Assembly: GCA_964549305.1 (NCBI GenBank)
Contig: CAZJVM010000003.1
Span: 31,380 to 95,379, forward strand
Origin: an uncultured bacterium
GTDB lineage: Bacteria > Schekmanbacteria > GWA2-38-11 > J061
Length of the DNA: 64,000 bases
Reading direction: 5' to 3'
The translations under genes were made by a program, and so were the position numbers. Shown in pieces: positions 1-20,133 of the stretch. A model generated the notes under the pieces. That model did not search any database. It was not told where the DNA came from and saw only the letters and a list, made by a program, of their open reading frames with translations. Every line of letters begins with the position of its first letter. The stretch's first letter is position 1.

Positions 1-1032
1 ATAGGAAGCGTCGATGAATATGAGAAAGGGCGAAAAAAGCGGCAGTATGAGCATTAACGATGAACTGTTGCCGTCAGTGTTTTCTTTTAAAAAGAGATAA
101 AAAAGGAAAACGGCAATTGCGCCAAGCAATGGATTTATCAGCCATGGCACGTTGAAGAGTATTCCCGCAGCAAGAAGCAGTGATGAGCCTGCAAAGTATT
201 TTCCATACCATTTAGCTCCGTCGGTTACTATGAATTCATAATCGAAAAACTTGGGTATGGGGGGAGACTGGGCGTAAAGTTTTCCCGATGCAAACACCTT
301 TGCCTGAAAAAGGTAGGCGACTTCATCCTGTATATGGGGCATTGCGTCAAGGGCGGTAAAAAATATTACAACAGGTATGAAAATATAAAGAATCACGAGA
401 ATAATTTTTATTCCTCTGCCTGAAAGTATTCGCCTGAATGATTCAGAAAGATTGATTTTTCCCGCTGAAAGAGCAGATGCAAGGAAGAGCGAAACCGAAA
501 GGATTGCAAGAATGATTATCCCCTCGTCAACGCGGTTTCTCAAAAAAGTTGATTCGAGTTTTCCTATAAATCTCGCCGAAAGAGCGAATAGCGCTTCTGA
601 AAGAAGAAGAATGATGCAGGGAAAATAGGCGGTTTTTCTCTTGCTCTTCTCTTTTTCGCCTTTCCCGGAAAAAATGACGGATGCCGCGAGAGATATAAAC
701 AAAAATATTATGAAATAGGAAAGGCACAGGGAAATCGGAATGTAGATTTTAAAGAAATAGAGAATCAGGGGTGAGAAAGAAAGAGGCGCTGAAATAAACA
801 ATATGTTCTTGATTTTTAAAATTTCTGAGAGAGAGGAATATACGTTTAAAAACAATGCCGCTATTATTGGATAAAGAAAAACAAGAAGGGAGAATATGAA
901 AGCAGCGGAATGTCCAGGCGGATTCAGCCTTATTTTCTCTGAAATCAAAAAGCTTAAATAGAGGATGGGAATGTTAATTAAAAAAAATATGATTGATCCC
1001 GAAGGCAAAGATATCCGGTTTGTATTTTTCAT
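1..1032 (-). CDS. GT-C fold glycosyltransferase, ArnT/PMT-like (GT83/GT39-like). 3' end lies beyond the window edge. Not in the ORF track because no stop codon occurs inside the window.
   Basis: Manual reverse-complement translation from the ATG at 1032-1030 (MKNTNRISLPSGSIIFFLINIPIL...) stays open to position 1 (>340 codons). It is a multi-TM hydrophobic protein. The first extracytoplasmic loop carries the D-E-x-x-Y motif (ALDAMPHIQDEVAYLFQAKVF) typical of ArnT/PMT polyprenol-P-sugar dependent transferases. The start sits 5 nt after the stop of the upstream rSAM gene. Confidence 0.55.
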   Translation of the reverse strand, partial: MKNTNRISLPSGSIIFFLINIPILYLSFLISEKIRLNPPGHSAAFIFSLLVFLYPIIAALFLNVYSSLSEILKIKNILFISAPLSFSPLILYFFKIYIPISLCLSYFIIFLFISLAASVIFSGKGEKEKSKRKTAYFPCIILLLSEALFALSARFIGKLESTFLRNRVDEGIIILAILSVSLFLASALSAGKINLSESFRRILSGRGIKIILVILYIFIPVVIFFTALDAMPHIQDEVAYLFQAKVFASGKLYAQSPPIPKFFDYEFIVTDGAKWYGKYFAGSSLLLAAGILFNVPWLINPLLGAIAVFLFYLFLKENTDGNSSSLMLILPLFSPFLIFIDASY

Positions 1033-1037
1033 ATTTA

Positions 1038-2150
1038 TCAATACTCCCTCAGACAACACCTGAGGCAGTCATTAAAAAGTCCCTTTTTCTTAATTTTGTT
1101 TCTGAAGTTTTTGTATTGCATTGAATTCCACAATTGATGGAAAGGCGTACTGTTTATATTGCCGAGAGGAAAATGCACGCAGGGACCTATATCACCGGAA
1201 GGCGTTATCATCAATTTTTGCCACGGTGTATAACAGCGTTTTTCAAAAGGATATGAAATATCGTTGTAGTATTCATCAATCCTGTCTTCTGGCACAGAAG
1301 GATAAAAATATACTTTAAGCGGAGATTTGATTCTTTTTATTTCTTTCATCTCTGATATTACCGATTCCGCGGAGATGTCACCCTGAAACACATATCCGAG
1401 TATGTCTATGGACTTGTTATCTTCCTTTTTTATTTCATTGTTCCCTTTCTCTGTAGAAAACATGGGATGTTGAAATGAAAGCGCATCTGCGCCTATCTCC
1501 TCTGCCACGGGAACGACATCCTTTAAATTAGCGTAGTTGAAGGGGGTTATGAGGCAATTCACTCTGATAAGCGGAAAGACCGTATTCATCGATTTCTTTA
1601 TTTCGTTGAGCTTTTTCACACCGTTAATAATCTTCTGGTAAGTGTTGCCCCTGTTGCGGTTATGAATTTCTTCGGGTCCGTCAAGAGATATTACTAACCT
1701 GTCTGTGCCCGCCCTGACGGTTTCTTCGGCGAATTTTTCAAGTAGCGCGCCGTTTGTATTTACAAGAGAGTAAAGTTTGTTTTCCCGAAGAAAGGATAAA
1801 AGCTCTGTTATTCTGCTATATAAGAAAGGTTCTCCGCCTGAAAGATATATTGTCGGAGAAAAATACTTTATATGGGAAAGAAACTGTTTTAGATTATCAA
1901 AATCTAGTTCCTCATTTTGTTTTGACCGGGAAAGTTCATCCGAACTTTTCCCGAATTCGAAACATAGCTTACAGCGAAGATTGCACTTGTATGTAAGGTC
2001 AATTCTTACCGTGTCGGGAAGAAAACTAAAGCCCTTTAGGAGGCGATAATCAAGTTTTGCTTTATCCTTTACGCGCGCAAGAAAACTCCGCAATCCGTAA
2101 CGGGGATTTTTCAAAAGACTTCTGATGCGGTTTTCACTATTATTTGCCAT
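1038..2150 (-). CDS. Radical SAM enzyme with a C-terminal SPASM/twitch-like Cys cluster (anSME-like subfamily).
   Basis: CNLRCKLC (CxxxCxxC) after a 55-aa N-terminal extension. GGEP and ISLDGPEEIHN motifs are present. The C-terminus reads C-x17-C...C-x2-C-C and ends at the last residues. Confidence 0.8.
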   Translation of the reverse strand: MANNSENRIRSLLKNPRYGLRSFLARVKDKAKLDYRLLKGFSFLPDTVRIDLTYKCNLRCKLCFEFGKSSDELSRSKQNEELDFDNLKQFLSHIKYFSPTIYLSGGEPFLYSRITELLSFLRENKLYSLVNTNGALLEKFAEETVRAGTDRLVISLDGPEEIHNRNRGNTYQKIINGVKKLNEIKKSMNTVFPLIRVNCLITPFNYANLKDVVPVAEEIGADALSFQHPMFSTEKGNNEIKKEDNKSIDILGYVFQGDISAESVISEMKEIKRIKSPLKVYFYPSVPEDRIDEYYNDISYPFEKRCYTPWQKLMITPSGDIGPCVHFPLGNINSTPFHQLWNSMQYKNFRNKIKKKGLFNDCLRCCLREY

Positions 2151-2291
2151 GGAAAAATATTCGGCCTTTTTTGTCTGTCTTTACAAAATAGAATATTATA
2201 CCTGTTTTTATTAAGTTAATTAAAAAAAACCTTTTTGTCTGAAATATTTTCGGGAAATTGTGCGGGATAAATATATAAAAACTGAATTTCT

Positions 2292-4256
2292 CTATTTTAT
2301 ATAGCCGAGTGCCTTGAGCTTTTCCTGCATTTCGCTGTCCAATTTTGGCCTGCTTCCCGGTATTACGGTTTTTTGGATATTGATTTTTTTATCCAAAAGA
2401 GCTTTTAACTTTTCCGCTTTTTCTTTTTCACTTGAAATAATATTTAGATTTTCTTCGGGGTCGTTTCTTCTGTTGTACAATTCCGAATCACCCTTTGATG
2501 AGGTTATCAGGGTGTTTTTGGAATTTCTCAGGGAAAAAAGATCCCGTTCGAATTTCAAAATATTTTGCGCATAGAGAGAATCTTCGTATATTTCACTGAG
2601 AGCATATTCCTTTCCCGATTCGACATTTTCACCGGTGGTAAAGAGTTTAAGACTGCGGTCGGGAATGTTGTCTCTATATTCAATTCCCGCGAAATCGAGT
2701 ATAGTTTGATAAATGTCTGTTGACCCCACAATGGAATTCACAGTCAAACCTTTTTGTGTTTTTCCCGTAAAATGAATGATAAGCGGTATATGTGTCTGCT
2801 CTGTATAAAGACTATGTCCGTGATCCCACAGTCCGTGTTCACCAATACTTTCTCCATGATCTGAAGTTACTATTACAAGTGTATTATTCCATAAGCGCAA
2901 CTCTTTCATTTTTTCAAAGAGCACTCCAATATAGTTGTCGAGGAAAAGGATTTCACCATCATAAAGATCGTTCAGATGTTGAAAATATTCCGGTGATATG
3001 TTCAGTTTTCCCGTTACGGAGTCTCTTCTTCCCGCAAGGTCTTTGAATTCCACTCTTTGAGGAAAATCGATTTTATTGTCTGAAAAAATGTTGAACCTGT
3101 CAGGAGGTTCATAAGGCGAATGAACGTCATTGAAGTTTATAAATAGAAAAAATGGTTTGTCCTTTCTTATTTTTTCCAATTTTTTGGTTATCAGAGGTAT
3201 TAACTCATCTGCTTTTCTGTAACCGTTGGGAAAGACGAAGCGTTTGTAGGGTATGTAATTATCGTAACCCTTCTCGAGTATTTTTTTTGAAAGATTTAGG
3301 AATAAAAGAGGTGTTGTATTGTCGATAAATCCTAAACTGTCAACGTTTTCATCAAAGAATGAAAATCCCTGCGTAATTCCGACTTTTTTTGATAACCAGG
3401 CATTACCCGTAAAGCCAATTGTTTCCCATCCTTTTTCAGAAAGAATTTCCGCGATTGTTTGATTCGATTCATCAAGGTAGAGATGTTTGTATGTAGCACC
3501 GTGTGAAGAAGGATACAACCCCGTGAATATGGAAGAATGACTCGGGAAAGTCCACGATGACGCAGAAAAACAATTTGTGAATAAAACTCCCTTTGAGGCG
3601 AGTTTGTCGAGGTTTGGTGATGTTTTCCTTGGATATCCGTAACAGGATAAATGGTCTGCCCTTGCTGTGTCCATTACGATTAAGATTATATTAGGTTTAT
3701 CTGTTGTTCCCGGTGAAGTATCTCCGGTGTCAAAAATTGGTTTAATGAACATGATTATTAAACCTGCAATGATGAAAAGTAATGCAGTTGCGGAAATTAT
3801 TTTTTTATTTTTCCAAAATAAATTTAGTATTTTAGAAAATGCCCAAGACAGTATAACCGTGCAGAGAATGATGCCCGCAAAAACAGCAAGTCTAACAATC
3901 AAGTTTTTTTCAAGAGGATTAATGGATAGTGCAAAAAGTTTTATGTAGAAATAAACAATGAAAATTGCAGGCAGGAAGTTTTTAACATAATTTCTGATAT
4001 TTTTTGGAAATACTTTAAAAATGAGAAGAGAAAAAAAGGTTGATAACATTCCTGCGAAGAACCCGGTAATTCCGTAAAGGATGCCGGCATATGCGATTAA
4101 AGAATTGCCTGTCTGAAGGTTTGGGCTAATTAAAGAATTGCTTTTAGAGAGAAAGTAGAGTGATTCCGTTACTCCCGTTAGAAACGCAGTCAGGAATCCT
4201 GCAAAGCAATATATTATTAAAAAATCAAAATTTACGTATACTGATTTTTGTTTCAT
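2292..4256 (-). CDS. Membrane-anchored sulfatase-fold (alkaline phosphatase superfamily) transferase/hydrolase, with LtaS/EptA/MdoB-like architecture.
   Basis: About five N-terminal TM helices are followed by IILIVMDTARADHLSCYGYPRKTSPNLDKLASKG (the sulfatase N-terminal metal-binding signature). TFPSHSSIFTG sits where sulfatases have C/S-x-P-x-R, so the FGly motif is absent. Confidence 0.7.
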   Translation of the reverse strand: MKQKSVYVNFDFLIIYCFAGFLTAFLTGVTESLYFLSKSNSLISPNLQTGNSLIAYAGILYGITGFFAGMLSTFFSLLIFKVFPKNIRNYVKNFLPAIFIVYFYIKLFALSINPLEKNLIVRLAVFAGIILCTVILSWAFSKILNLFWKNKKIISATALLFIIAGLIIMFIKPIFDTGDTSPGTTDKPNIILIVMDTARADHLSCYGYPRKTSPNLDKLASKGVLFTNCFSASSWTFPSHSSIFTGLYPSSHGATYKHLYLDESNQTIAEILSEKGWETIGFTGNAWLSKKVGITQGFSFFDENVDSLGFIDNTTPLLFLNLSKKILEKGYDNYIPYKRFVFPNGYRKADELIPLITKKLEKIRKDKPFFLFINFNDVHSPYEPPDRFNIFSDNKIDFPQRVEFKDLAGRRDSVTGKLNISPEYFQHLNDLYDGEILFLDNYIGVLFEKMKELRLWNNTLVIVTSDHGESIGEHGLWDHGHSLYTEQTHIPLIIHFTGKTQKGLTVNSIVGSTDIYQTILDFAGIEYRDNIPDRSLKLFTTGENVESGKEYALSEIYEDSLYAQNILKFERDLFSLRNSKNTLITSSKGDSELYNRRNDPEENLNIISSEKEKAEKLKALLDKKINIQKTVIPGSRPKLDSEMQEKLKALGYIK

Positions 4257-4294
4257 AAAGATGAGATCAAAGAGTGATTGAAAACTGATTCAGA

Positions 4295-5677
4295 TTAATT
4301 TATATAACCGAGAGTTTTTAAACGTTGTTCCAGTTTTTTGGCTATATTATCTCTTAGTTTTTGCAGTGATTTGGGAACTTCTTTGCTGTAATCTTTTTCC
4401 ATGTCTTTGTTCCATGAATAATTTTTTTCCCAATTTAGTATTTTTTCTCTAAGATTATTTGACACTTCCGGATTAACCTTAGCGATATTTAAAGATTCAT
4501 TTGGGTCTTCTTTTATATTATAAAGTTCTTCCTTTTCATAAAAATACTCTAATTCTTTAAGAGGTTTTGGATGATAACCTGTGGGATTATAAATATATTT
4601 AAAATTATCTGTTCTTACAGAAACTATTTTATTTTGCCATTCGGAATAGGCATCATTTAATTTAATATCTTTACCTTCAATGAGAGGATACAAACTGGTC
4701 CCTTCAAAATTGCTTTGAGGAGAAATTTCCAACAAGTTTAATATAGTGGGGGCAATATCAATGCTTTCAACTGTTTTATCTATTTTTTTCCCCGATGAAA
4801 TTATTCCGGGCATTTTAAATAACAGGGGAATTTTAAGAGTGCTGTCGTGAATTGAGGCGCCATGTTGAAAATAAAAATTGTGTTGATATAAATCCTCGCC
4901 ATGGTCAGCAGTAAAAACAATTAATGTTTTATCTTCCAGTTTTAATTGCCTGAGAACATTAATCAGTTTTTTAATTTCATTATCAATGCTTGCTATTTCA
5001 CCGTCATATAGTGAAATGATATGGTTTAAATCATTTTTCCGTAGTCCAATTTTATTAAGTGTGATTTTATACAATTGTTCTCTGCTTCCATTTATGTTTC
5101 CTTTATAATCAGGATCAAAGAGAGTTTTGTATGGTTCAGGCGGGTCATATGGGTCATGTGGTGCAATATAGTGTATCCAGAGAAAGATTTTCTTTTTAGA
5201 ATTATTTTTCAGCCACTTGATTGCCATAGTGGTAATTTCATTATCTCTTCCATGTTCCTGATGTTCAAAACCTCTCCACTTTGCATAATAGGAATTTGCC
5301 AAAAATGAAGCGCATGAATATCCGTTATCTCTCAATATTTCAGCCAAACTGATTTTGCCTTCAGCTAACATCATTCCGTTTTCTCTAACCCCATGGGAAA
5401 CGGGGTATAAAGAAGTCATTATTGATGTAAGTGAAGGCCATGTTTGTCCTCTTTGTGCGATTACATTAGTAAATAAGGAACCTTTACTGGCAATTTCGTC
5501 TATTGTGGGGGAAGTGTTTCTTGCATATCCGTAGCAACCCAGATGATCCGGTCTTAAAGTATCAACAGATATAAACACTACATTGTATCCACTTGTTTTT
5601 TGATTATAGAGAGTTAAGGAAATAATAACGAATATTAATAAAAGGACGGGGAAAATAATAATAAATTTTTTTTGCAT
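4295..5677 (-). CDS. Sulfatase-family protein with a signal anchor, paralog of the previous gene.
   Basis: N-terminal hydrophobic signal/anchor, then VVFISVDTLRPDHLGCYGYARNTSPTIDEIASKG. TWPSLTSIMTSLYP occupies the position of the FGly motif. Confidence 0.7.
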   Translation of the reverse strand: MQKKFIIIFPVLLLIFVIISLTLYNQKTSGYNVVFISVDTLRPDHLGCYGYARNTSPTIDEIASKGSLFTNVIAQRGQTWPSLTSIMTSLYPVSHGVRENGMMLAEGKISLAEILRDNGYSCASFLANSYYAKWRGFEHQEHGRDNEITTMAIKWLKNNSKKKIFLWIHYIAPHDPYDPPEPYKTLFDPDYKGNINGSREQLYKITLNKIGLRKNDLNHIISLYDGEIASIDNEIKKLINVLRQLKLEDKTLIVFTADHGEDLYQHNFYFQHGASIHDSTLKIPLLFKMPGIISSGKKIDKTVESIDIAPTILNLLEISPQSNFEGTSLYPLIEGKDIKLNDAYSEWQNKIVSVRTDNFKYIYNPTGYHPKPLKELEYFYEKEELYNIKEDPNESLNIAKVNPEVSNNLREKILNWEKNYSWNKDMEKDYSKEVPKSLQKLRDNIAKKLEQRLKTLGYIN

Positions 5678-5985
5678 TAAACTAACCTGCCGGAGAAAAT
5701 TAAAACGCTATCTATTTTACAAACCAATAATATTATTATCTTTTGTCGCATTAAATTATTACTATAACAATAAACATTGTAAAGCTTATTTAGAAATATC
5801 AGATTTTTATAGAGGTAAAATTTCTTAATAAAAAGAATTATTGAGAAAATCGGTTATTTGCCAAACTCACAAATGTATACTTTAATAAAGTGTACACAGA
5901 AATTTATCGATGATGAATTTTCCGAAAATCAGCTAAGTTGCATTTTATATATTCCTTTAATTAGTGGCAAATATTTTGAGACAAA

Positions 5986-7422
5986 ATGTTATTTAACTCA
6001 ATAGAATTTGCAATATTCCTTCCTGTGGTGTTCATCATCTACTGGTTTATCCTAAAAAAGAATTTTAAAGCTCAAAACTTCTTTCTCCTTGTTTCAAGTT
6101 ACATATTCTACGGATGGTGGGACTGGAGATTTTTATCATTGATAATATTCAGTTCATCTGTGGATTACTTTGTAGGAATTGCGTTGTCGCGTGAGGAGAA
6201 GGAAGCAAAACGGAAACTTTTTTTACTTATCAGCATTTTAGTGAACTTGGGGTTGCTCGGATTTTTTAAATACTGGAATTTTTTCGTGGAGAGTTTTTCC
6301 GAAGCATTTACGCTTTTCGGAAAACATATAGAACCGGACAGACTGAATATCATACTTCCTGTGGGAATAAGTTTTTACACATTTCAAACTCTGAGTTATT
6401 CGATAGACGTCTACAGAAAAAAGTTTCGTCCCACCAAAGATGTTCTGGCATTTTTTGCCTTTGTGAGTTTTTTCCCTCAATTGGTTGCCGGTCCAATAGA
6501 AAGGGCAGTAAATCTTTTGCCGCAATTCTCCAGGGAGCGTAAATTTGATTACGAAAAATCGGTTGACGGAATGCGTCAGATTCTTTGCGGATTGTTTAAA
6601 AAAATCGTTATAGCGGATAATTGCGCAGTTTTAGTCAATGACATTTTTTTAAATTATGACAAATATTCGGGCAGTACTCTTTTGGCAGGTACGGTTTTTT
6701 TCGCTTTTCAGATATATTGCGATTTTTCGGGCTATTCTGACATCGCAATAGGCACGGCAAGATTGTTTGGTTTTCAACTGATGAGAAATTTCGCGTTTCC
6801 CTATTTTTCAAGGGATATTGCTGAATTCTGGCGAAGATGGCATATTTCCCTTTCAACGTGGTTTCGTGATTATGTCTATATCCCCCTCGGAGGTAGCAGG
6901 GGAAGCACTTGGGAAAAAATACGAAATACCTTTGTAATCTTTCTTGTAAGCGGATTCTGGCACGGGGCGAACTGGACATTTATAGTTTGGGGATTTATCA
7001 ATGCCCTATATTTCCTTCCTCTGCTACTTCTTAAACGAAACAGAAAATTCACTGACAATGCGGCGGAAGGGAAAATATTTCCCGGAATCAGGGAATTTTT
7101 TCAGATTTGCTGCACTTTCGGATTAACGGTTGTGGCGTGGATATTTTTTAGAGCGGAAAACATCAGCCAAGCTTTAAGTTATCTGTCTTCAATGTTTTCC
7201 GCTTCTTTATTTTCTCTTCCGAAAATAAAGTCGGGTAATTTAATTATTATTCTTTTGATCTTTATTTTTGTTGAATGGTTTCAGCGAGACAAGCAGCATG
7301 CCCTTCAGTTTGACAATGTAAAAATACCCGCTTTCATTCGCTGGGGCATTTATTATGCGATTATTCTAATGATTTTCGGATTAGGCGGAAATAAGCAGGA
7401 GTTCATCTATTTTCAGTTTTAG
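5986..7422 (+). CDS. MBOAT family membrane-bound O-acyltransferase (AlgI/DltB-like).
   Basis: Multi-TM protein. It carries the conserved WRRWHISLSTWFRDYVYIPLGGSRG block with the catalytic His. Confidence 0.85.
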   Translation: MLFNSIEFAIFLPVVFIIYWFILKKNFKAQNFFLLVSSYIFYGWWDWRFLSLIIFSSSVDYFVGIALSREEKEAKRKLFLLISILVNLGLLGFFKYWNFFVESFSEAFTLFGKHIEPDRLNIILPVGISFYTFQTLSYSIDVYRKKFRPTKDVLAFFAFVSFFPQLVAGPIERAVNLLPQFSRERKFDYEKSVDGMRQILCGLFKKIVIADNCAVLVNDIFLNYDKYSGSTLLAGTVFFAFQIYCDFSGYSDIAIGTARLFGFQLMRNFAFPYFSRDIAEFWRRWHISLSTWFRDYVYIPLGGSRGSTWEKIRNTFVIFLVSGFWHGANWTFIVWGFINALYFLPLLLLKRNRKFTDNAAEGKIFPGIREFFQICCTFGLTVVAWIFFRAENISQALSYLSSMFSASLFSLPKIKSGNLIIILLIFIFVEWFQRDKQHALQFDNVKIPAFIRWGIYYAIILMIFGLGGNKQEFIYFQF

Positions 7423-7427
7423 GAACG

Positions 7428-8312
7428 ATGAAAAAATTTTTAGAGAAAATATCATTATTTGTGCTTATCTATTGCCTCATTATGACTGTCAATTTTCTTT
7501 TAAACTCCTACTTCATTCAAACCAACAGTCCAAAAATAAATGCAGGGACTCTCGTGACAGGTGATTCATATACCGCCCTTGCAATCAATCCTGAAATAAT
7601 GAGAGATTCGGCAAACATCAGCATATTTGCCGAACCGTATATCATCACTTATTTTAAAATGAGAAAAATACTTAAAACGAATTCATTAAGAACAATACTG
7701 ATCGGTTATTCCTATCACAACATTTCCGCATTCAATGATACGAAATTCAAGGACCCCGTCTGGTCACACAGGTTTTTCGAGAAAAGTTATCCCATTTTAT
7801 CTCTTTCGGATTTGGAAGGTCTGGATGTCAATTATCTGGAATATATTAAAGTAATAAACAAATATATGTGTTCATATCCTTCCTCGCGTCATTACAGTTA
7901 TATAGGTTCTTTCCAAAGGGATTTTGACAGGTCTGAAGAATTTAACAGTGAGGAAGCAATCGAGAGACATTTCTTTATTGATAGCGAAAATGCGGGAATA
8001 TCGAAAATCTCGGAAAATTATTTGGATATGCTGTTGGGACTGGCGAATGAACGGAATATAAAGGTAATTCTGCTTTCCACTCCCCTGCATAAATCTTATC
8101 TTGATAAAGTTCCCGTAAATTTCAAGGAAGAATATGATGAATTCAGAAAAAAAATATTGAAAAAATATGCAAATACGGCCTTTTGGGATTACAGCAAATT
8201 GTTTTCGGAAAATAAATATTTTAAAAACACCGACCATTTAAACATCGATGGGGCGAATAAATTTTCACAACTTCTGAGAGAACGCCTCCAGAAAAAAATA
8301 GACTTTAAATAG
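7428..8312 (+). CDS. SGNH/DltD-AlgJ-like partner protein of the MBOAT acyltransferase.
   Basis: N-terminal signal anchor, a GDSYT block and a C-terminal DHLNIDGANKF (D-x-x-H) block. Starts 6 nt after the MBOAT stop. Confidence 0.5.
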   Translation: MKKFLEKISLFVLIYCLIMTVNFLLNSYFIQTNSPKINAGTLVTGDSYTALAINPEIMRDSANISIFAEPYIITYFKMRKILKTNSLRTILIGYSYHNISAFNDTKFKDPVWSHRFFEKSYPILSLSDLEGLDVNYLEYIKVINKYMCSYPSSRHYSYIGSFQRDFDRSEEFNSEEAIERHFFIDSENAGISKISENYLDMLLGLANERNIKVILLSTPLHKSYLDKVPVNFKEEYDEFRKKILKKYANTAFWDYSKLFSENKYFKNTDHLNIDGANKFSQLLRERLQKKIDFK

Positions 8313-8530
8313 CATTAATAAAAAATGCTTTGCGCCGTTATAATTGCTTTCTGTCCGCATATGTTATCTTAAAGGAGTTTTTGAGTTACTTTTGAGTGTG
8401 TTCGATTTACAATAAGAAAATGTTTTCTCCGGGTCTCTGTACCCTTTGTGAGAAATGATTTAGTTTCATTTGTTTTTGAATATTCCTGTCATGCAGGAAG
8501 ATAAAATGATGAACCGGAGGTTTTTCAAAT

Positions 8531-10462
8531 TTGAAATTTATAGAGAAATATAAACACGTAATATTTCTTTTATTAATTTTCATTATCTGTTTTTCCCTTT
8601 ATGTCCCTGCCCTTTTCTCCGTTGACGATATGGGATATTACCTGATGGGCAAATCCTTTGCCGAAGAACAAACCTTTCGGGTTTGGACGGGATATGAGGA
8701 ATTCAAGACTACTGCATTCGGAATATTTCAACCCGTATATTCACTTTCCGGTGATTCTCTTTATGTAAAGTATCCGCCCTTTTACGCATTCATATCAGCG
8801 CCTTTCTACAAACTCTTTCATCTGCGGGGTCTTTTTATACTTAATATTCTGTCATTTGCAGGAACAATATATTTTCTCTATCTCCTGTCGCTATCTCTCT
8901 TTGACAGCAAAAAGATGGGCGAAAGAGTTGTGCTGGTTTATGTTTTTGCCACATTTTCCGTCGAATACGCGATTGGATTATGGCCACATATGCTGTCGGT
9001 CTTTTTAGTGGTTTCGGGCGCCTACTTCTTTATAAAATACTTAAAGAGCGAAGATGCAGGCATTTTCAATATTTCGGCAGCCATTGCTCTCTTTGGCCTG
9101 TCAATAGGTGTTCGTCTTCAGAATATAGTCTTTTTGGGAATCGCTTTCGCGGCGATGATATTGTTAAAAAAGGATCTTAAAGCTGTATTTACCGCAGCAG
9201 TTGCGGGAGGTTCTTTTTTAATTATTGAGGGGGCAATAAACAAGGAGCGATTCGGATCCTTCGACCCTTTCAGCTACGGTCATTATAAGGGTAAAAATCT
9301 CGGATATTATTTGCAGTATCCGGAATACTTCGTGCTTTTTGGACTATTCGCGCTGTTATTCTTTTTATTCGCAAGAAAGAGAAAATTGTCTCCGAAAATC
9401 AAATATTCCATTATTGGGGTATCTTTTCTGATTCTTGTCACTGCGTTTCTAAGCAACCGGGTAATCAGGGGAATATTTTATTATTGGGCATATACGCTTT
9501 ACTGCAACCTTGTTGACCTTTCGGCGTTTTATAAAAAGAGCGGATTAATCATAGGAGATAGCGGCGCGATACTATATGGAGGAGTCGTGAAGAAATCTCT
9601 TTTGCAATCCTGTCCATATCTCATTTTGAGTTTTTTATCTCCCTTCATAATATTTAAAGAAAAGGGGAACAGAAGTGTTTCAATATTCCTGTCTTCTCTT
9701 TTGGTAATTCCCCTTGCATTTATTTCGAGTTTTTTCTTTCACGGAGGTTACGCCTTCAATATCAGGTATGCTTTGGAATTTTTGCCATTTGCAGTTATTC
9801 TTTTTTGTTGGTTAATCAGAAATATAAATTTTCAATTGAAAGAATTCCTCATTGCGGGACTTCTTTCATCTCCTTTTCCTTTTATTTTTTATTATCAGAG
9901 AGACGCAGGGTTGATAAAGGAAATGTTTATCCTGTATTGCCCTCTTCTTATGGCATCTCTGCTTCTGGTTGTTTTTGTCGTAAAAACCTTTAAAGGCAGA
10001 AGTATTTCAGTAGGAAGTTCATCATTTGTAAATATCCTGATATTGATTTCACTTTTCTATTCCTTTTCCGCGGGATGGGCAGGTGACCTTACGGCATCGA
10101 GGAGATTGAGGTTGAATAACTATTATTCCTATTCTTCCCTTTCCAAAGAGATAAAATCCGATTCACTTTTGATAATGCTTGAAGATATAGGTGTGGAGAT
10201 TCTCCCTTTAAAGGAGTACGCGAAAATACGAATTGCTTATGTGCCGGTTGAAAAAATTGAAACTTATCTCGGAATGATAGGTTATTATCTCGAAAAGAAT
10301 ATTCCGGTGTCTTTCATTTCTACAAAAACAAGCGCTGATGATATGAGGGGGGTATTGAGGGGATATTTTTCAATAAAAGAGAAAAAAATAGGAAAATTTG
10401 CTTTATTTGAAATAGTAAAAAGAAAAATCGATATGGATGTTTTTGAAAAGAAAGATGCGTAA
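8531..10462 (+). CDS. Integral membrane protein, GT-C-like glycosyltransferase candidate.
   Basis: About 12 or more TM segments. VDDMGYY(x9)G follows TM1, matching the first-loop motif of PMT/ArnT families. The start is a TTG, 13 nt downstream of a GGAGG. Confidence 0.45.
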   Translation: MKFIEKYKHVIFLLLIFIICFSLYVPALFSVDDMGYYLMGKSFAEEQTFRVWTGYEEFKTTAFGIFQPVYSLSGDSLYVKYPPFYAFISAPFYKLFHLRGLFILNILSFAGTIYFLYLLSLSLFDSKKMGERVVLVYVFATFSVEYAIGLWPHMLSVFLVVSGAYFFIKYLKSEDAGIFNISAAIALFGLSIGVRLQNIVFLGIAFAAMILLKKDLKAVFTAAVAGGSFLIIEGAINKERFGSFDPFSYGHYKGKNLGYYLQYPEYFVLFGLFALLFFLFARKRKLSPKIKYSIIGVSFLILVTAFLSNRVIRGIFYYWAYTLYCNLVDLSAFYKKSGLIIGDSGAILYGGVVKKSLLQSCPYLILSFLSPFIIFKEKGNRSVSIFLSSLLVIPLAFISSFFFHGGYAFNIRYALEFLPFAVILFCWLIRNINFQLKEFLIAGLLSSPFPFIFYYQRDAGLIKEMFILYCPLLMASLLLVVFVVKTFKGRSISVGSSSFVNILILISLFYSFSAGWAGDLTASRRLRLNNYYSYSSLSKEIKSDSLLIMLEDIGVEILPLKEYAKIRIAYVPVEKIETYLGMIGYYLEKNIPVSFISTKTSADDMRGVLRGYFSIKEKKIGKFALFEIVKRKIDMDVFEKKDA

Positions 10463-10464
10463 AC

Positions 10465-11982
10465 ATGACGCGTGAACAACCTTCCTGCATTGACAGATTT
10501 GATTTTAAAAAAAGAAATCATCTCCTGCTTTTTGTTTTCATTATTATCGCGTCGAGAATCCCTTTGCTCAATCTCGGTTTCGGTTATGACATTGACGGGT
10601 GGGTGGAAGCAAATTTTGGATTCAATACCATAAAAAACCTTGTCTATCTTCCCTCGAGAGGATTGGGTCATCCTCTTTATGAACTCTTTTTGTCGGGCCT
10701 TATAAAAATTGCGGAATTATTGTCGCTTCAAACATGGATTGTAACGAATACATTTTCCTTATTTTACCTGTTCATCTCATTATTCCTTTTTTACAGAATT
10801 CTTTCTTTATGGAATGTGGAAGGAAAGAATATTATCATTCTGTTTTACCCCTTTATACCGGTAATCTGGAAAAACAGCGCTATGACGGTGGATTTCAGCT
10901 TTTCTCTGATGTTTATTCTTATGGCCCATTACCTTTTGCTCAAGGGAAAATATGATTTGTCGGCTCTTATTCTTGGACTTGCCGCAGGATCAAGATTTCA
11001 GAATGGAATCATAATAGTTCCTTTTCTTTTCCTGATTTTTCAAAAATTCAATGGGCAATGGAAAAAAGCGGCGAGGTATATTGTCATATTCGGATTTGTA
11101 ACATTCCTTTTTCTTATTCCCTTCTTGCTCAATTACGGCACATCAATTGCGGAGAGATATCATTCCGTTGCAAACCTGGAATCAACTCCTCTTATGTATT
11201 TTCTTAAAGCGGGTTTCAGGGGGATTTACCGTTTCATAGGGATAGATGCAGCGATAATTTTATGCGTTCTCCTTCTCTTTTCAAAGGAGGGGTTCAAAAA
11301 AGTAACTTCATTTGTCAAATCGAGGGATGAATCAACTGTTTTTTCACTTCTCACGGTATTGCTTTTTTTAGCCCTTTTTGCGAAATTCCCCTACAAGCAG
11401 GAGTATATGTTTCCCGTTGTACCGTATTCTTTGATATTGTTTTATAACCTGCTCGGCAGAAGATTATTCCCCGTTATTGCCCTTATAGTAATTATAAACG
11501 GATTTGTGGTTCTACCTTCCGTAACTGTTGAATATACTCCCGAAGGAAAAATTTATCCCGTGATAAAGCCTGTGGGGAAGGGGACTCTTTTATCGGATAT
11601 TGACAAAAGAAAAGCGCTTTTGAAAGTAGATGATTTCGTGAAATCAGGAAAGATTCAAAAACACTCCATAGTCATATGGCACAGATTTCAGATGCCTTAT
11701 GTATTTTTAAACAGGCATAAAATTTACGATGAGGGAAACTTCAGAATAGAGGATAAAAAACTTCTTCCACTGGAATCCGTTTATGACAAAGAGCAGGATA
11801 TATATTTTACCGGAGGAGGGTTGATTAACGGAAAGAATGACGAGGAATTAAAACAGCTATATTCCGAAAGGAATGTTTATTACATACCATGCACTCTTAA
11901 AATAGTGTATAACAATACCGGAATCAATCTTCCCGATTACAATCCTATTCTTATAAAGGGTTTGAAACCTCACGAGTATTAG
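10465..11982 (+). CDS. Integral membrane protein, probable GT-C-like glycosyltransferase.
   Basis: Multi-TM N-terminal two-thirds plus a soluble C-terminal domain. Translationally coupled to the preceding membrane protein (3-nt gap). Confidence 0.4.
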   Translation: MTREQPSCIDRFDFKKRNHLLLFVFIIIASRIPLLNLGFGYDIDGWVEANFGFNTIKNLVYLPSRGLGHPLYELFLSGLIKIAELLSLQTWIVTNTFSLFYLFISLFLFYRILSLWNVEGKNIIILFYPFIPVIWKNSAMTVDFSFSLMFILMAHYLLLKGKYDLSALILGLAAGSRFQNGIIIVPFLFLIFQKFNGQWKKAARYIVIFGFVTFLFLIPFLLNYGTSIAERYHSVANLESTPLMYFLKAGFRGIYRFIGIDAAIILCVLLLFSKEGFKKVTSFVKSRDESTVFSLLTVLLFLALFAKFPYKQEYMFPVVPYSLILFYNLLGRRLFPVIALIVIINGFVVLPSVTVEYTPEGKIYPVIKPVGKGTLLSDIDKRKALLKVDDFVKSGKIQKHSIVIWHRFQMPYVFLNRHKIYDEGNFRIEDKKLLPLESVYDKEQDIYFTGGGLINGKNDEELKQLYSERNVYYIPCTLKIVYNNTGINLPDYNPILIKGLKPHEY

Positions 11983-12009
11983 GCAGGCAAGGAAGTTTCA
12001 GAACAACTC

Positions 12010-13191
12010 TCAGAATGGCGGCAGGTAAGTCCAGATTCTTTCATTCAACGCGCAACAACGGCTGCATTTGGGAAAGAGCCTGTTTTTTTTAAGATTGACC
12101 CTGAACTGCCGGTATTTTTCATTGTTCCAGATTTTTGCAAGTGTTTCAGTGCGAATATTGCCCATAGGCATATTCAGCGAGCAGGGATTTACCTCTCCGT
12201 AGGGATTTACTCTTACGTGGTACCACGGATACAGACATTTGTCGGTGAATGTAAAATCTGAATCGTTAAAATAGGAATTAACTTCGCGTTTTTTCAGCGG
12301 CGGGCTCGATTTAACCTCTATGCCGTATTTTCTACCTGTTTTCTTTGCCTCTGCAAGTTCCTTTATCAGCTCATCTGTATTTACATTCTTAAGTTGCTCG
12401 TCTATGTCCATATCACTGAATTCCGATTTTCCCCCGGAAAAGATTCTGTCCGTTTTCTCGAGCATTTCTTCCGTAATGTAACTTACAAAGGTAAAAACGA
12501 TATCCGTACCGATTTTTCCCGCAGTTTTGGCAACTTCGTTCAGATAACCTGCGTTTGCGCCTGAAACGGTGCAGTTAAAGCTCATATTCGGAAGATAAGT
12601 TCCTTTTTTTTCTTTTGCTCTTTGTATGAGTTGAACCGCATCGAGGAGCTTTTTGAATGCGTTTTTTTCATTTCTGATTTCGTTATGTATCTTTTCCGGA
12701 CCGTCCAGGGAGAAGACTATGGAATCAACTCTCTTTTCCACGATTAGAGATGCTGTTTGCTCGTTTATGAGGGTCCCGTTGCTTCTGAGGGCAACAGTAA
12801 GTCCCTTACCCTTAACGGCGCTTATTATATCGAAGATGTCCTTCCTTAAAAAAGGCTCACCTCCGGAAATGGTGAATATATTAACTCCCAGACTTTTTGC
12901 CTGCGTCGCGAGTTTTTCAATTTCCTCCAGTGAAAGTTCTCCTTTTTCTTTCCATTTTTCCCTGAGCTTAGAGTCCTTGTTTTTCAAATCACTCGCAAAT
13001 GAGCACATAGCGCAACTTTGATTGCAAAAAAATGTCGTCTCATAAACGAGTCTGTCAGGAGAGGGCGCGATGCCTTTTGAGAAACAATAATAAAACCAGT
13101 ATGGAAGATAGAATTTTATCTTAAAAATAAATCTCAAAAAAGGGAGAATCCCTTTGGGAAGTTTTTCCTTTATTAAAAATCTGATATTCAT
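12010..13191 (-). CDS. Radical SAM/SPASM-twitch enzyme, paralog of 1038..2150.
   Basis: CNQSCAMC motif, GGEPF, FSLDGPEKIHN. The C-terminal layout C-x18-C...C-x2-C-C matches the other two paralogs. Confidence 0.8.
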   Translation of the reverse strand: MNIRFLIKEKLPKGILPFLRFIFKIKFYLPYWFYYCFSKGIAPSPDRLVYETTFFCNQSCAMCSFASDLKNKDSKLREKWKEKGELSLEEIEKLATQAKSLGVNIFTISGGEPFLRKDIFDIISAVKGKGLTVALRSNGTLINEQTASLIVEKRVDSIVFSLDGPEKIHNEIRNEKNAFKKLLDAVQLIQRAKEKKGTYLPNMSFNCTVSGANAGYLNEVAKTAGKIGTDIVFTFVSYITEEMLEKTDRIFSGGKSEFSDMDIDEQLKNVNTDELIKELAEAKKTGRKYGIEVKSSPPLKKREVNSYFNDSDFTFTDKCLYPWYHVRVNPYGEVNPCSLNMPMGNIRTETLAKIWNNEKYRQFRVNLKKNRLFPKCSRCCALNERIWTYLPPF

Positions 13192-13227
13192 AAATCTGAA
13201 TTCGTCCTCAGAAACACTTAAAACTTT

Positions 13228-14640
13228 TTAAAAGTGAATAAGTTCCTTTATTTTGTCAAAATCCTCTTTGCCCAGCTCTTTTGTTACAAAAAGGATTATA
13301 AAATATATGAGAAGAAGCAAAGGGCATTTTATAAAAATATAAAAGCCGGAAGGTGAAACATAGCTTGTCAGCAGGAAGAGAATCCCGCCGGCAAAAATAA
13401 TTTTTATGAATGAGTTTATTTTGAGCGATACATGAAATTTTCGCTGAAGATAGATTAACATAATGATAATACCTATTAGAAATGTTGAGGTGGTTGCCAT
13501 TGCCGCGCCTGAAATTCCAAAGGATTTGATGAATAATAAATTAAAAATAATATCAATGGGAAGAATTAAAAGCGCAATATACATCGATGCTTTTGGATTT
13601 CCGCTGCCAACTATTATTGCCGAAAGCAAGGCGAGTATGGATGAAAAAGCGAGTCCGAAACTTAGAAACATCAACGGAAGATAAGCGTCGGTATATTGGT
13701 TCGTATAGAGCAATTCCAGTATTCCCGTTGCCGATGCGCTCATAATGACTGCAAGGGGAATGAGAAATATGAGCATATATCTCAGCGATTCGTTGAAGTA
13801 CTTTTCTATCTTGTAAAAATTCTTTTCCGCGACTGCCTTTGAAATCGATGGCAGGACTACAGTTGGAAAGCTTACGAATAAAATTGCGGGGACCTTGGCA
13901 ATGTTAACTGCCGCGGTATAAAGTCCCGTTTCCCTGTTGCTTCCGATAAGTGATTTTACGAAAAGAAGATCGATGCTCGAAATTGCCGTGATGCAAAAAA
14001 CATATAGAATGACCGTTGACGCGAAAGATAATATTTTTTTTAATTCGAAATTTTCATCTGACTCGGGATGTTTGCAGATTGACCTTGACAAAAAAAGCTC
14101 GGCAATTGCCGCGAATATAAGAGCAATGACAATTCCTTTAATTTTATAGCCGCCATATATAGCTATGAATACGAAAATAATTTTTGTCACTCCCTGAAAG
14201 GTGATAGAAACCGAAAGTCTTCCGAATTCCCTGATGCCGTTCATTGATGCCTGATAAATACCATTAATCGCGGTGGGAAGAATAATGAGAGTTGTAAGAA
14301 CGAGAAGGGGTGTAAGGGTCGTATCTTTCAGGAGGCGGGCTATTTGCGAACTGAATATTATTGCCGCTATTGTTACCACTCCCGCAAGAAGTGCCTGAAC
14401 TTTCAACCCTGTTTTGAGAATGGATTTTCCTATATTTGCAAACTCGGCGGTATACTTGGTTACTGCGGCATGCATCCCGGGCTGATAGGTCATATAGGTA
14501 ATATTCAGAAAGGACATCAAAACCCCGTATAAGCCATATTGTTCCACGCCGGCAAGTCTTGCAATGGCAATGTGTATTACGAAACTGCTCAATGCCAGAA
14601 AAATTCGGCTTACAGTGAGATATACTATTCCGCTTCCCAT
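13228..14640 (-). CDS. Polysaccharide/oligosaccharide flippase (Wzx/MOP superfamily).
   Basis: About 12-14 TM helices across 470 aa, with the typical MOP flippase hydrophobicity pattern. It sits inside the glycosyltransferase operon. Confidence 0.65.
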   Translation of the reverse strand: MGSGIVYLTVSRIFLALSSFVIHIAIARLAGVEQYGLYGVLMSFLNITYMTYQPGMHAAVTKYTAEFANIGKSILKTGLKVQALLAGVVTIAAIIFSSQIARLLKDTTLTPLLVLTTLIILPTAINGIYQASMNGIREFGRLSVSITFQGVTKIIFVFIAIYGGYKIKGIVIALIFAAIAELFLSRSICKHPESDENFELKKILSFASTVILYVFCITAISSIDLLFVKSLIGSNRETGLYTAAVNIAKVPAILFVSFPTVVLPSISKAVAEKNFYKIEKYFNESLRYMLIFLIPLAVIMSASATGILELLYTNQYTDAYLPLMFLSFGLAFSSILALLSAIIVGSGNPKASMYIALLILPIDIIFNLLFIKSFGISGAAMATTSTFLIGIIIMLIYLQRKFHVSLKINSFIKIIFAGGILFLLTSYVSPSGFYIFIKCPLLLLIYFIILFVTKELGKEDFDKIKELIHF

Positions 14641-14656
14641 TTTTAATTGATTGCTT

Positions 14657-15646
14657 TCAGTTTGAACAGTATTTGCAAAGATCTATATTCTTCCTTCTCA
14701 TTTTTTTCATTTCGTTTATTATCTTCAGCCTTTCGGGAGAATTGTAAATTTCATATATACTGCACTCGTTAACATTTCCTATTGTCCCTCTTTGATTCAA
14801 ATCCATACAACAGGGGCTTACATTTCCGTTCCAGTGTACGGCAAGTTGTCTTGTCACCGTATAACACAATCCTTTCCGCGCTTCTCCTTTTTCTGAAACT
14901 TCGATTTCTTCGCTTCCGTCCCACGAATGGAAACCGCGGGGAAGATATTTATCGGTTTTCCTGATTAATTGTTTGAAATCATCGGAAATGTTCTCGGGAT
15001 CTTCTATTATGGATACGAGACCTGTTTTTATATTCAGCCCTCGTTCCTTTATTTTATCAACAGTGTTATTTACATTCTGCAGAATATTTTCCCAGTTTGC
15101 CCCTCTTCTCCAATATTCAAAGGAATCCCTCGTTCCGCCGTCTATGCTCACAAGGACCATGTCGACAGCATTGCTTTCCAATATGGCATCGAGTTTTTTG
15201 CCTTTCAAAGAAACACCGTTTGTAAGGAGAGTTACATAGGGAAAAAGAATCTTTCTTTTTTTAAAGGAACCTATCATGGCGAGAAAATTTTCGAAATCGG
15301 GATGCAGAAGTGTTTCGCCTCCGTACCAAAGGGCGATATTGCTTACAGTAAGAAGTTTTGAGGAGACAATTTCATCCAATATTTTTTCAAGGGTCTTTTT
15401 TTCCATAAAACCCTGTGGCGCGTTTTGGTCAAGGGAGCACATCCTGCATTTAATGTTGCATAAGGAAGTGAACTCAATGTTAAGCCAGAGAAGACGAGCT
15501 TTTTTGGAGAATAACGATGAGAACTTAATGTAAGGAGAGCTGAAGAAAAACTTTTTATAAAGAGAACTGTTTAGAAATCTGCGGTATCGGTTTGTGAGAG
15601 TGTCGCTTTCTTTCCCTCTTTCATTTTTGCCGGTGCTTGAGCTCAT
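14657..15646 (-). CDS. Radical SAM/SPASM-twitch enzyme, third paralog.
   Basis: CNIKCRMC, YGGE, VSIDGGTRD. C-terminal cluster C...CC...C...CKYC. Confidence 0.8.
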   Translation of the reverse strand: MSSSTGKNERGKESDTLTNRYRRFLNSSLYKKFFFSSPYIKFSSLFSKKARLLWLNIEFTSLCNIKCRMCSLDQNAPQGFMEKKTLEKILDEIVSSKLLTVSNIALWYGGETLLHPDFENFLAMIGSFKKRKILFPYVTLLTNGVSLKGKKLDAILESNAVDMVLVSIDGGTRDSFEYWRRGANWENILQNVNNTVDKIKERGLNIKTGLVSIIEDPENISDDFKQLIRKTDKYLPRGFHSWDGSEEIEVSEKGEARKGLCYTVTRQLAVHWNGNVSPCCMDLNQRGTIGNVNECSIYEIYNSPERLKIINEMKKMRRKNIDLCKYCSN

Positions 15647-18445: not shown

Positions 18446-18449
18446 TTGT

Positions 18450-18620
18450 TTATTTTTCCGAATCGTAACTTTTGTCAGACAGTTTATTTTCGACTATCAC
18501 ATTGAAATAATTTTTTGCCACCGTTGAAGTTCCCAAATCGGTAAAATGCACCGAATCAGTAAAATAATTTACCGTTGTTTTATCCACTTTCTTCGAATAT
18601 TCAAATTTAATGTAAGTCAT
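18450..18620 (-). CDS. Small hypothetical ORF (56 aa). Not in the ORF track.
   Basis: ATG at 18620-18618 and stop at 18452-18450. Sequence MTYIKFEYSKKVDKTTVNYFTDSVHFTDLGTSTVAKNYFNVIVENKLSDKSYDSEK. It ends 5 nt before the GT2 start. Only a weak RBS, no Cys. Confidence 0.2.
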   Translation of the reverse strand: MTYIKFEYSKKVDKTTVNYFTDSVHFTDLGTSTVAKNYFNVIVENKLSDKSYDSEK

Positions 18621-18868
18621 CTGAATTATTCCCGTAAAACCCTTTAACTTATTATACTGTATAAGAAACTATTATAAAGACTGTCAGGCAATAAATCGAA
18701 TAAAGTTTCTTTTAATTCAAGATCATGCCTGTCCAAAACAGATTTTTCATAACTTATATTTAACAGAGTCCCCTGATAAAAATACTGCTTAACTACGGAA
18801 AACAATACCTACACGGACAAAAGAACTTTGTGATGATTAGATATTTTTTTTAAAGACAACCTCTTTTA

Positions 18869-19999: not shown

Positions 20000-20133
20000 A
20001 AACTTAAAAGTTCTTCCTCATTAATGTTGAAGTTACTGAATTTTTTTATAATTAGTCCGATTAGCCCTGTTCGAAATTTAAATTTTTTAAAAATTGAGTA
20101 TTCGACATAAATTTTAAATAAAATTATCCACAA

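Follow-up and report, generated by a model that had tools for sequence, protein, structure and literature searches.

Is a radical S-adenosylmethionine (SAM) gene that lies next to two sulfatase-fold genes the maturase of its neighbours, even where these lack the formylglycine motif? The question is raised by a 64,000-nucleotide stretch of contig CAZJVM010000003.1 (hereafter the window, meaning the whole of this stretch) from an uncultured bacterium of the Schekmanbacteria, at one end of which a radical SAM protein (rSAM1) and two sulfatase-fold proteins (A and B) are encoded. An earlier reading made from the letters alone (the sequence-only reading) had likened rSAM1 to the anaerobic sulfatase-maturating enzymes (anSMEs), held its co-localisation with A and B to be suggestive, and proposed either that A and B are Thr-nucleophile phosphotransferases like LtaS and EptA, with rSAM1 doing something else, or that rSAM1 installs a modification on their Thr motif. 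The three open reading frames are indeed present, consecutive and all on the minus strand, within the interval it had flagged (Table 1). We consider it probable, however, that they form one end of a radical SAM-rich envelope-glycan (or glycolipid) cluster of about 25 kb, not a sulfatase/maturase pair. What is present here, as far as can be told from sequence, is a set of Thr-type alkaline-phosphatase-superfamily enzymes mis-annotated as sulfatases, together with a Twitch-type radical SAM enzyme in a glycan cluster, all from uncharacterised families.

The nucleophile site of proteins A and B

Both sulfatase-fold proteins match the Pfam families Sulfatase (PF00884; 183 bits for A and 162 for B), SGSH_C (PF16347) and, more weakly, Phosphodiest (PF01663; 66.8 and 55.1 bits against a cut-off of 23, in A mainly over residues 191-266), and they share 28% identity. 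A simple hydropathy scan predicts five transmembrane (TM) helices at the N-terminus of A, followed by the PF00884 domain, which bears out the five-TM anchor of the sequence-only reading. The positive-inside pattern predicts an N-in/C-out topology for A, which puts its catalytic domain on the outer side of the membrane. In B, a single TM segment or signal anchor at the N-terminus precedes the PF00884 domain.

Pairwise HMMER alignments to solved S1 sulfatases, in which the reference motifs read S-T-P-A-R (7oz8) and A-G-P-S-R (4upi), show T236 (A) and T79 (B) in the formylglycine (FGly) position and H240 and L83 in that of the motif Arg, in agreement with the earlier assignment of TFPSH and TWPSL to this site. 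A canonical C/S-x-P-x-R elsewhere, which would have made these proteins ordinary sulfatases, was searched for in A, in B and in six frames of the whole window; there was none, nor any other canonical sulfatase signature. Read by eye, the 'GKWH' Lys/His region is GNAW in A and ANSY in B. All the sulfatase models of NCBIfam stay under their cut-offs for both proteins, the best scoring 187 against 481.

Which known enzymes, then, do A and B resemble? Along the full length of the catalytic domain and its C-terminal subdomain, their closest sequences are S1 sulfatases and phosphonate monoester hydrolases (PMH), with 5G2V, 7OZ8, 4UPI and 2VQR among the best matches; they differ from the sulfatases in having Thr in place of the Cys- or Ser-derived FGly and His or Leu in place of the motif Arg. 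The predicted structure of A points the same way. In an AlphaFold2 model most 10-residue blocks of the catalytic domain have a predicted local distance difference test (pLDDT) above 90, several internal segments being below 50 and the TM region being of low confidence (about 40-78), and Foldseek against the PDB returns soluble S1 sulfatases and PMH as the best hits (E 1e-25, target-normalised TM score about 0.7).

The nucleophile motif itself is of another type. That of A follows the pattern T-F-P-(N/S)-H-x-S-I-x-T-G-L-Y-P-x-S-H-G and is nearly identical to that of ENPP1: the motif peptide WTFPSHSSIFTGLYPSSHG has ENPP1 (KTFPNHYSIVTGLYPESHG) as its best match in the PDB, followed by ENPP3, ENPP4 and a bacterial NPP. 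The ENPP-type motif carries the catalytic Thr of the NPPs, and the NPP/ENPP family (PF01663) matches the N-terminal part of both A and B. A is of the T-F-P-N-H type, whereas B has Leu where His is expected, and both depart from the NPPs in their overall domain and C-terminal SGSH_C subdomain, which are of S1-sulfatase/PMH type in sequence and predicted fold.

The membrane-anchored phosphotransferases LtaS, EptA (MCR) and OpgB offer a further comparison. Like them, A combines five TM segments with a PF00884 domain outside the cytoplasm that has a Thr nucleophile and Asp/His metal ligands (all predicted), and it lies in an envelope-polymer gene cluster; this architecture is that of A alone, B having its single TM. 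The model matches are weak and partial (P_eth_NH2_trans 62.3 against 500; LtaS 27.4 against 970, in B only), no LtaS, EptA, CptA, MCR or YejM model reaches its cut-off, and the catalytic domains of A and B are nearer to sulfatases and PMH. Thus, the proposal of Thr-nucleophile phosphotransferases holds in outline, given the clade-wide Thr, the conserved candidate ligands and the domain predicted to lie outside the membrane, but the LtaS/EptA-like label does not, as the catalytic domain is nearest to S1 sulfatases/PMH and bears an NPP-type nucleophile motif. A fourth likeness is to the STM4013/SEN3800 hydrolase (NF038075), also of sulfatase fold, whose model is matched by the N-terminal half of A (60.6 bits, cut-off 250). 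Its gene we take to lie beside two radical SAM genes in Salmonella; the radical SAM models of that system are absent among the best 25 matches of rSAM1, and a literature search on STM4011-4013 found no functional data.

Two large Thr clades

Neither Thr is a peculiarity of this locus. Relatives of A number 2,310 at E<=1e-20 among the candidates scored, and those of B 19,437 at E<=1e-30 in a search of 1.84 billion cluster representatives. An alignment of 122 sequences, made up of A, its 120 best relatives and B, has Thr in 104 and Ser in 18 at the nucleophile position, and TxPxH in 100, typically in the form W-T-L-P-S-H-A-S-x-F-T-G. Among the best relatives of B that could be aligned, a count of MAFFT columns gives Thr at this position in 129 of 131; the commonest form is TxPSL (53/131), and the fifth position often has another hydrophobic residue. 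TWPSL is thus the signature of a second clade and not a product of decay.

The residues expected around such a nucleophile are kept as well. In A, D196, R199, P238, H379, D466, H467 and H479 are invariant (alignment A2) and T236, H240 and H474 nearly so; Asp196, Thr236, the Asp466-His467 pair, His379, His474 and His479 are conserved candidate metal ligands. In B, D39 is kept in 125 of 130 aligned sequences, and H175, D258, H259 and H272 are fully or almost fully conserved. From these alignments A and B are best described as members of two very large uncharacterised Thr-nucleophile clades in the sulfatase/phosphonate-monoester-hydrolase branch of the alkaline phosphatase superfamily. Thr at the catalytic site is common and well known, since 30 of the 59 PF00884 seed sequences have it and are not demonstrable sulfatases according to the authors of SulfAtlas (PMC5066984).

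It follows for annotation that the label 'sulfatase' on proteins with W-T-x-P-S-H or T-W-P-S-L is almost certainly wrong, and in genome mining such proteins should neither count as sulfatases nor be paired with anSME-like genes. Both clades are very large, and we found no characterised member of either.

rSAM1 as a Twitch enzyme

The likeness of rSAM1 to the anSMEs (TIGR03942; PDB 4K36-4K39) lies in its CxxxCxxC core, its similar length, a C-terminal Fe-S domain that matches Pfam SPASM, and the PF00884 genes adjoining it. The three Cys of the core (C56, C60 and C63) are invariant in a 22-sequence alignment of the family (A1), and ISLDGPEEIHN, at residues 154-164, was another of the blocks to which the sequence-only reading appealed. 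These 'size and blocks' are features generic to radical SAM and SPASM/Twitch proteins. Against the anSME equivalog model TIGR03942, rSAM1 scores 59.7 bits where the cut-off is 349.45, and fifteen other radical SAM models score higher, AhbD, NirJ, MoaA and viperin among them. The top model, W_rSAM_matur (tungsten-cofactor maturase), gives 123 against a cut-off of 380, and no NCBIfam model reaches its cut-off for rSAM1, nor for its two paralogues in the cluster or the B12-binding radical SAM proteins described below. When the single sequence is searched against the PDB, anSME appears at E 7e-6, behind MoaA, GDGT-MAS, viperin-like enzymes and BlsE.

The auxiliary cysteines decide the placement. 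A SPASM domain is defined by seven Cys, CX9-15GX4C-gap-CX2CX5CX3C-gap-C, which hold two auxiliary clusters, and a Twitch domain is a truncated SPASM with a single one (PMC6231123). The C-terminal Cys of rSAM1 are at 306, 324, 362, 365 and 366, and the protein ends at residue 370; it thus retains the first four of the seven (C306, C324, C362 and C365), has no room for CX5CX3C...C, and is a Twitch enzyme. The 'C-terminal auxiliary Cys' taken earlier as an anSME trait are therefore only the four-Cys Twitch motif. The comparison with BtrN, the butirosin 2-deoxy-scyllo-inosamine dehydrogenase (PDB 4M7T), shows rSAM1 to be of Twitch type with one predicted auxiliary [4Fe-4S] site of the BtrN kind: the pattern CX(n)GX4C...CX2C is common to both, positions 312-379 of the family profile correspond to BtrN residues 184-256 (E 1.4e-13), and BtrN is the sole PDB match of the last 80 residues of rSAM1, with Cys aligned to C169 and C232 of BtrN. 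The two enzymes are otherwise unlike, BtrN having 250 residues and rSAM1 about 100 extra ones between core and Twitch domain, and their radical SAM cores not being specifically similar.

A hydropathy scan finds no TM segment in rSAM1, which is therefore predicted to be cytoplasmic. About 45 residues precede the core, and there is neither a RiPP recognition element (RRE; RiPP, ribosomally synthesised and post-translationally modified peptide) nor a peptide-binding extension.

Linkage between radical SAM and sulfatase-fold genes

If rSAM1 acted on A and B, the genes should travel together. We examined 80 genome loci with relatives of rSAM1 (26-35% identity, flanks of 10 kb) from GTDB species representatives, including Planctomycetota, Omnitrophota, Elusimicrobiota, Scalindua, Acidobacteriota, Treponema, Paenibacillus and others. 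In 3 of the 80, a gene related to A or B lies within 10 kb of the radical SAM gene, and in none does it adjoin it. Conversely, among 80 metagenome loci (843 kb) with relatives of A, none carries a relative of any radical SAM protein of the window. At L089, the locus of a distant relative, a sulfatase-fold gene of the five-TM Thr type is followed by a YfhO-family gene, with three tandem sulfatase-TPR fusion paralogues nearby and no radical SAM gene (L089 coordinates 16415-21908 on the minus and 11912-14485 on the plus strand).

The closest relatives of rSAM1 deserve separate treatment. The best match of rSAM1 among GTDB species representatives is 35% identical, so that its close subfamily (46-77% identity, seven distinct contexts) is known from metagenome contigs only. 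A sulfatase-fold gene adjoins the radical SAM gene in two of these contexts, the window itself and L001/L002 (77%), and is 5 kb away in a third (L003, 53%), where a flippase gene is the direct neighbour. It is not seen in the other four, as there is no such gene on the contigs of L170 (60%), L171 (53%), L004 (46%) or P0011 (46%). These loci are syntenic with the cluster of the window: the radical SAM gene is found in all, the downstream GT-C gene, a methyltransferase, the short radical SAM protein and the flippase in most, and GT1 with two GT-C-like membrane proteins in several. From this synteny, the neighbouring position of the sulfatase-fold gene in the two nearest relatives goes back to a single ancestral cluster. 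In L001, the radical SAM protein is 77% identical to rSAM1 and the adjoining sulfatase 37% identical to A, and the closest homologue of A (48%) is found in another variant of the cluster, L087. The sulfatase-fold gene looks like an optional accessory of the cluster, and rSAM1 beside Thr-type sulfatase-fold genes is an ordinary pairing.

These results, taken with the family placement, make it very likely that rSAM1 is not a maturase of A or B: the anSME model fails, the motif for a second auxiliary cluster is absent, and there is no co-inheritance beyond the two nearest relatives. The sequence-only reading had itself held that the linkage would be coincidental if rSAM1 clustered with non-anSME SPASM families, and that is where it falls.

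Gene neighbourhoods of the rSAM1 family

The company that the family does keep is that of glycan genes. In a Pfam census of the 144 genes directly flanking rSAM1 relatives, DegT/DnrJ/EryC1 is found 15 times, GT1/GT4 8 times, radical SAM 7, methyltransferases 6, B12-binding radical SAM 5, GFO/IDH/MocA oxidoreductases 4 and Wzx-type flippases 3; the 25 commonest families include no sulfatase. In 16 of the 80 genome loci, mostly those most similar to rSAM1, a DegT gene is found no more than 400 bp from the radical SAM gene, often overlapping the start codon of the latter. These are radical SAM proteins of about 387 residues encoded directly downstream of DegT/DnrJ/EryC1 in Planctomycetota, Omnitrophota, Elusimicrobiota, Firestonebacteria and Scalindua (loci L007, L009, L011, L012, L013, L018, L021, L023, L027 and L037 among others). 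The pair is reminiscent of 2-deoxystreptamine synthesis, in which BtrN is accompanied by an aminotransferase. The substrate of BtrN is a small, carbohydrate-like molecule, and the butirosin pathway uses a DegT-family aminotransferase after it.

In the close relatives of rSAM1 the radical SAM gene is flanked by a GT-C/PMT_2-type gene or one for another large polytopic membrane protein. The gene at the very edge of the window, 5 bp beyond the stop codon of rSAM1, is the orthologue of the PMT_2-type GT-C glycosyltransferase gene found after the radical SAM gene at related loci; in phmmer comparisons it scores 375 bits with the downstream gene of L001/L002 and 131 bits with that of L004, both annotated as PMT_2. 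The neighbourhoods thus show a family that recurs in glycan clusters of many phyla, and a conserved pairing of rSAM1 with GT-C. Literature searches on Twitch radical SAM enzymes with polysaccharides or epimerases gave no match, and those on radical SAM with O-antigen or SPASM nothing relevant. Recurrently coupled to DegT or GT-C, this Twitch family is a reasonable place to look for radical enzymes that tailor the sugars of envelope glycans in uncultivated anaerobes.

Proposed roles and alternatives

We would place the probable roles on the two sides of the cytoplasmic membrane. In the cytoplasm, rSAM1 would abstract a hydrogen atom from a sugar or lipid-linked pathway intermediate and would not act on protein; the likely reaction is either an epimerisation or, as in BtrN, the conversion of a carbinol into a ketone. 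Among the relatives coupled to DegT, this ketone would be passed on to the aminotransferase; in the GT-C-coupled subfamily the product of the radical SAM enzyme would be the sugar that the GT-C enzyme delivers. Outside the membrane, together with those GT-C and MBOAT enzymes of the cluster that face the periplasm, A and B would work on the exported polymer or a lipid-linked precursor via a covalent phospho-Thr intermediate, either adding a phospho-substituent (the logic of LtaS and EptA) or cleaving a phosphodiester or phosphomonoester (that of NPP and PMH). More generally, and only as a tentative proposal that we would not rate as probable, two families may be represented here: a very large Thr clade that would form a new class of envelope-glycan phosphoryl transferases or phosphodiesterases (S1/PMH fold, NPP motif, often membrane-anchored), and a pan-bacterial Twitch radical SAM family that, where coupled to DegT, would make keto-sugars from which anaerobes build amino sugars, or would tailor the sugar of a GT-C enzyme.

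Several observations weigh against this interpretation. The window and L001/L002, which are the nearest radical SAM contexts, both have a same-strand sulfatase-fold gene directly upstream, and several of the contigs without such a gene are short (9-13 kb). The searches made here found no characterised member for either Thr clade or for the radical SAM family, so that the substrates of A, B and rSAM1 are inferred from context only. As the catalytic domains of A and B are nearer to sulfatases than to known phosphotransferases, sulfate-ester or other chemistry is possible, and the weak hopanoid- and lipid-enzyme matches of the B12-binding radical SAM proteins and the oxidase next to them make a lipid substrate possible. 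Finally, there is no DegT gene in the cluster of the window, and the analogy to BtrN and its aminotransferase therefore fits the wider family and not rSAM1 directly.

The alternative that would matter most is that rSAM1 is a dedicated maturase which modifies the Thr of T-x-P-S-H/L before export (to 2-amino-3-ketobutyrate, for example), as part of a new cofactor system analogous to anSME and FGly. A protein cofactor installed by a radical SAM enzyme on a Thr motif would be important if true, but the evidence is against it and we judge it very improbable, even for the two nearest relatives. The same-strand adjacency in the window and in the locus of the 77%-identical homologue speaks for it, as do the predicted locations, with rSAM1 cytoplasmic and its targets exported as in the case of anSME, and the fact that radical dehydrogenation of a carbinol carbon is common to BtrN-type and anSME-type enzymes (PMC6231123). 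But the Thr clades are thousands strong and have a radical SAM gene nearby in 0 of 80 sampled loci, relatives of rSAM1 do without a sulfatase in 77 of 80 genome loci and in four of the seven close contexts, and rSAM1 has one predicted auxiliary cluster, lacks both an RRE and a peptide-binding extension, and is coupled more closely to the GT-C gene (5 bp away) than to A (141 bp); identity between loci, moreover, is 77% for the radical SAM protein against 37% for the sulfatase. Thr is besides already a competent nucleophile in NPP, LtaS and EptA, where it works unmodified and requires no maturation. The opposite possibility, that A and B are ordinary FGly sulfatases with an anaerobic maturase and that their C/S-x-P-x-R was overlooked, could appeal to the PF00884 and SGSH_C matches and to arylsulfatases and carbohydrate sulfatases as the best PDB and NCBIfam matches; with the motif nowhere in A or B, Thr at the FGly site, His or Leu at the Arg site, NCBIfam sulfatase scores far under the cut-offs, and an rSAM1 that fails both the anSME model and the anSME Cys motif, its probability is next to nil, and it is the sequences of A and B, lacking the motif, that rule it out.

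Two further alternatives keep A and B apart from rSAM1 as a maturase and change its substrate. That rSAM1, and perhaps its Twitch paralogues and the B12-binding proteins, modify a lipid (a polyprenyl carrier, a membrane lipid or a glycolipid anchor) while A and B handle lipid head groups is unlikely, although not out of keeping with several matches: GDGT/macrocyclic archaeol synthase (E 2.3e-7) among those of the single rSAM1 sequence in the PDB; HpnJ, HpnR and a lipid 'ladder' radical SAM protein among the best for the neighbouring B12-binding proteins; HpnE and phytoene-desaturase models, weakly, for the oxidase. EptA- and LtaS-type enzymes also use phospholipid donors. All these matches are far under their cut-offs, and the wider family is flanked mainly by DegT, GT1/GT4, GFO/IDH/MocA and Wzx-type flippase genes, which points to nucleotide-sugar chemistry. 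A role for rSAM1 as a peptide or protein maturase unrelated to A and B, RiPP-like or acting on a glycoprotein, we find quite improbable. The family profile does have the peptide maturases SkfB and CteB as the best PDB matches of its core, and many NCBIfam matches of rSAM1 are RiPP maturases; against this, there is no RRE domain, no small precursor open reading frame fits the 141-bp or the 5-bp gap, the conserved neighbours are glycan genes, and the nearest match of the C-terminal domain, BtrN, is an enzyme that acts on a small molecule.

The envelope-glycan cluster

The remainder of the cluster of which we take rSAM1, A and B to be one end was delimited by Pfam and NCBIfam matches and by synteny with L001-L004, L087 and L170 (Table 1). 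It comprises an MBOAT/DltB-like gene and its 294-aa partner, two GT-C-like membrane proteins, a flippase, three glycosyltransferases (GT1/GT2/GT1), two Twitch radical SAM proteins, a HemK-like and a further methyltransferase, an oxidase dependent on flavin adenine dinucleotide (FAD) and two B12-binding radical SAM proteins. Five radical SAM genes fall between 1 and 25.3 kb, an unusually high number for one cluster.

Table 1. Features of the rSAM1 locus and the surrounding cluster (positions in the window)
Feature	Position	Strand	Remarks
Polytopic membrane protein, start of gene	1-1032	minus	At least 8 TM; runs past window edge; GT-C orthologue
rSAM1, radical SAM protein, 370 aa	1038-2150	minus	Pfam Radical_SAM and SPASM
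Predicted Twitch motif of rSAM1, C306-x12-G319-x4-C324 ... C362-x2-C365(-C366)	1053-1235	minus	
SAM-binding [4Fe-4S] motif of rSAM1, CNLRCKLC	1962-1985	minus	Residues 56-63 (C56, C60, C63)
AT-rich spacer between A and rSAM1, 141 bp	2151-2291	minus	Sequence read
Protein A, sulfatase-fold, 654 aa	2292-4256	minus	PF00884, E 9.6e-54
Nucleophile motif of A, T236-F-P-S-H240	3537-3551	minus	NPP/ENPP-like
Protein B, sulfatase-fold, 460 aa	4295-5677	minus	PF00884, E 3.1e-47
Nucleophile motif of B, T79-W-P-S-L83	5429-5443	minus	
Remainder of envelope-glycan cluster	5986-25350	both	Pfam/NCBIfam matches and synteny
MBOAT/DltB-like O-acyltransferase	5986-7422	plus	TIGR04091, 148 bits, under its cut-off
Single-TM protein, 294 aa	7428-8312	plus	Starts 5 bp after MBOAT gene; no Pfam/NCBIfam match
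Large polytopic membrane protein	8531-10462	plus	
Large polytopic membrane protein	10465-11982	plus	
Twitch radical SAM paralogue, full length	12010-13191	minus	30% identity to rSAM1
Third, shorter Twitch-type radical SAM protein, 329 aa	14657-15646	minus	
HemK/PrmC-like methyltransferase	15621-16325		End overlapped 26 bp by the shorter Twitch gene
B12-binding radical SAM protein	20134-21564	plus	Best matches sub-threshold
FAD oxidase	21571-22974	minus	PRK07208 'hypothetical protein' family, 402 bits, cut-off 389
B12-binding radical SAM protein	23839-25350	plus	Best matches sub-threshold

In the AT-rich spacer between A and rSAM1, a TATAAT hexamer precedes the rSAM1 start codon by about 45 nt, and a separate promoter for rSAM1 and the GT-C gene may lie there. 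A consensus scan of the spacer found no complete -35/-10 pair, and a promoter and terminator scan of positions 900-6100 gave counts at or below shuffle expectation, so that operon boundaries remain inferred.

On the other side of B, the MBOAT gene and its partner are transcribed divergently from A and B; they resemble a polymer O-acylation pair in the style of DltB/DltD or AlgI/AlgJ. One of the large polytopic proteins of the cluster has weak matches to GT87 and to the Leptospira LA_3751/LA_3752 family of putative glycosyltransferases, and the presence of three such proteins (the two that follow the O-acylation pair and the one at the window edge) suggests several periplasmic glycosylation steps of GT-C type. 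Both additional Twitch radical SAM proteins have a terminal CxxC pattern identical to that of rSAM1. The shorter of the two is paired with the HemK/PrmC-like methyltransferase, and this pair is kept in L001, L003, L004, L087 and the P0011 contig. Towards the far end of the cluster, the FAD oxidase, with a distant likeness to UDP-galactopyranose mutase and HpnE, is flanked by the two B12-binding radical SAM genes, for which HpnJ, HpnR, the lipid 'ladder' radical SAM protein, BchE and PhpK are the best (sub-threshold) matches.

The G+C content is 31-37% across the sulfatase/GT-C part (1-12000) and 44-47% near 40-50 kb. The glycan cluster is thus markedly AT-richer than the remaining window, as is often the case for horizontally exchanged surface-polysaccharide loci. 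Outside the cluster, positions 26539-27687 (plus strand) encode a DUF362 protein whose C-terminal ferredoxin domain is of the two-[4Fe-4S] type, and a 370-aa protein with a weak radical SAM match is encoded at 34239-35351 (minus strand). Together with the many radical SAM genes, these two proteins would fit an anaerobic organism.

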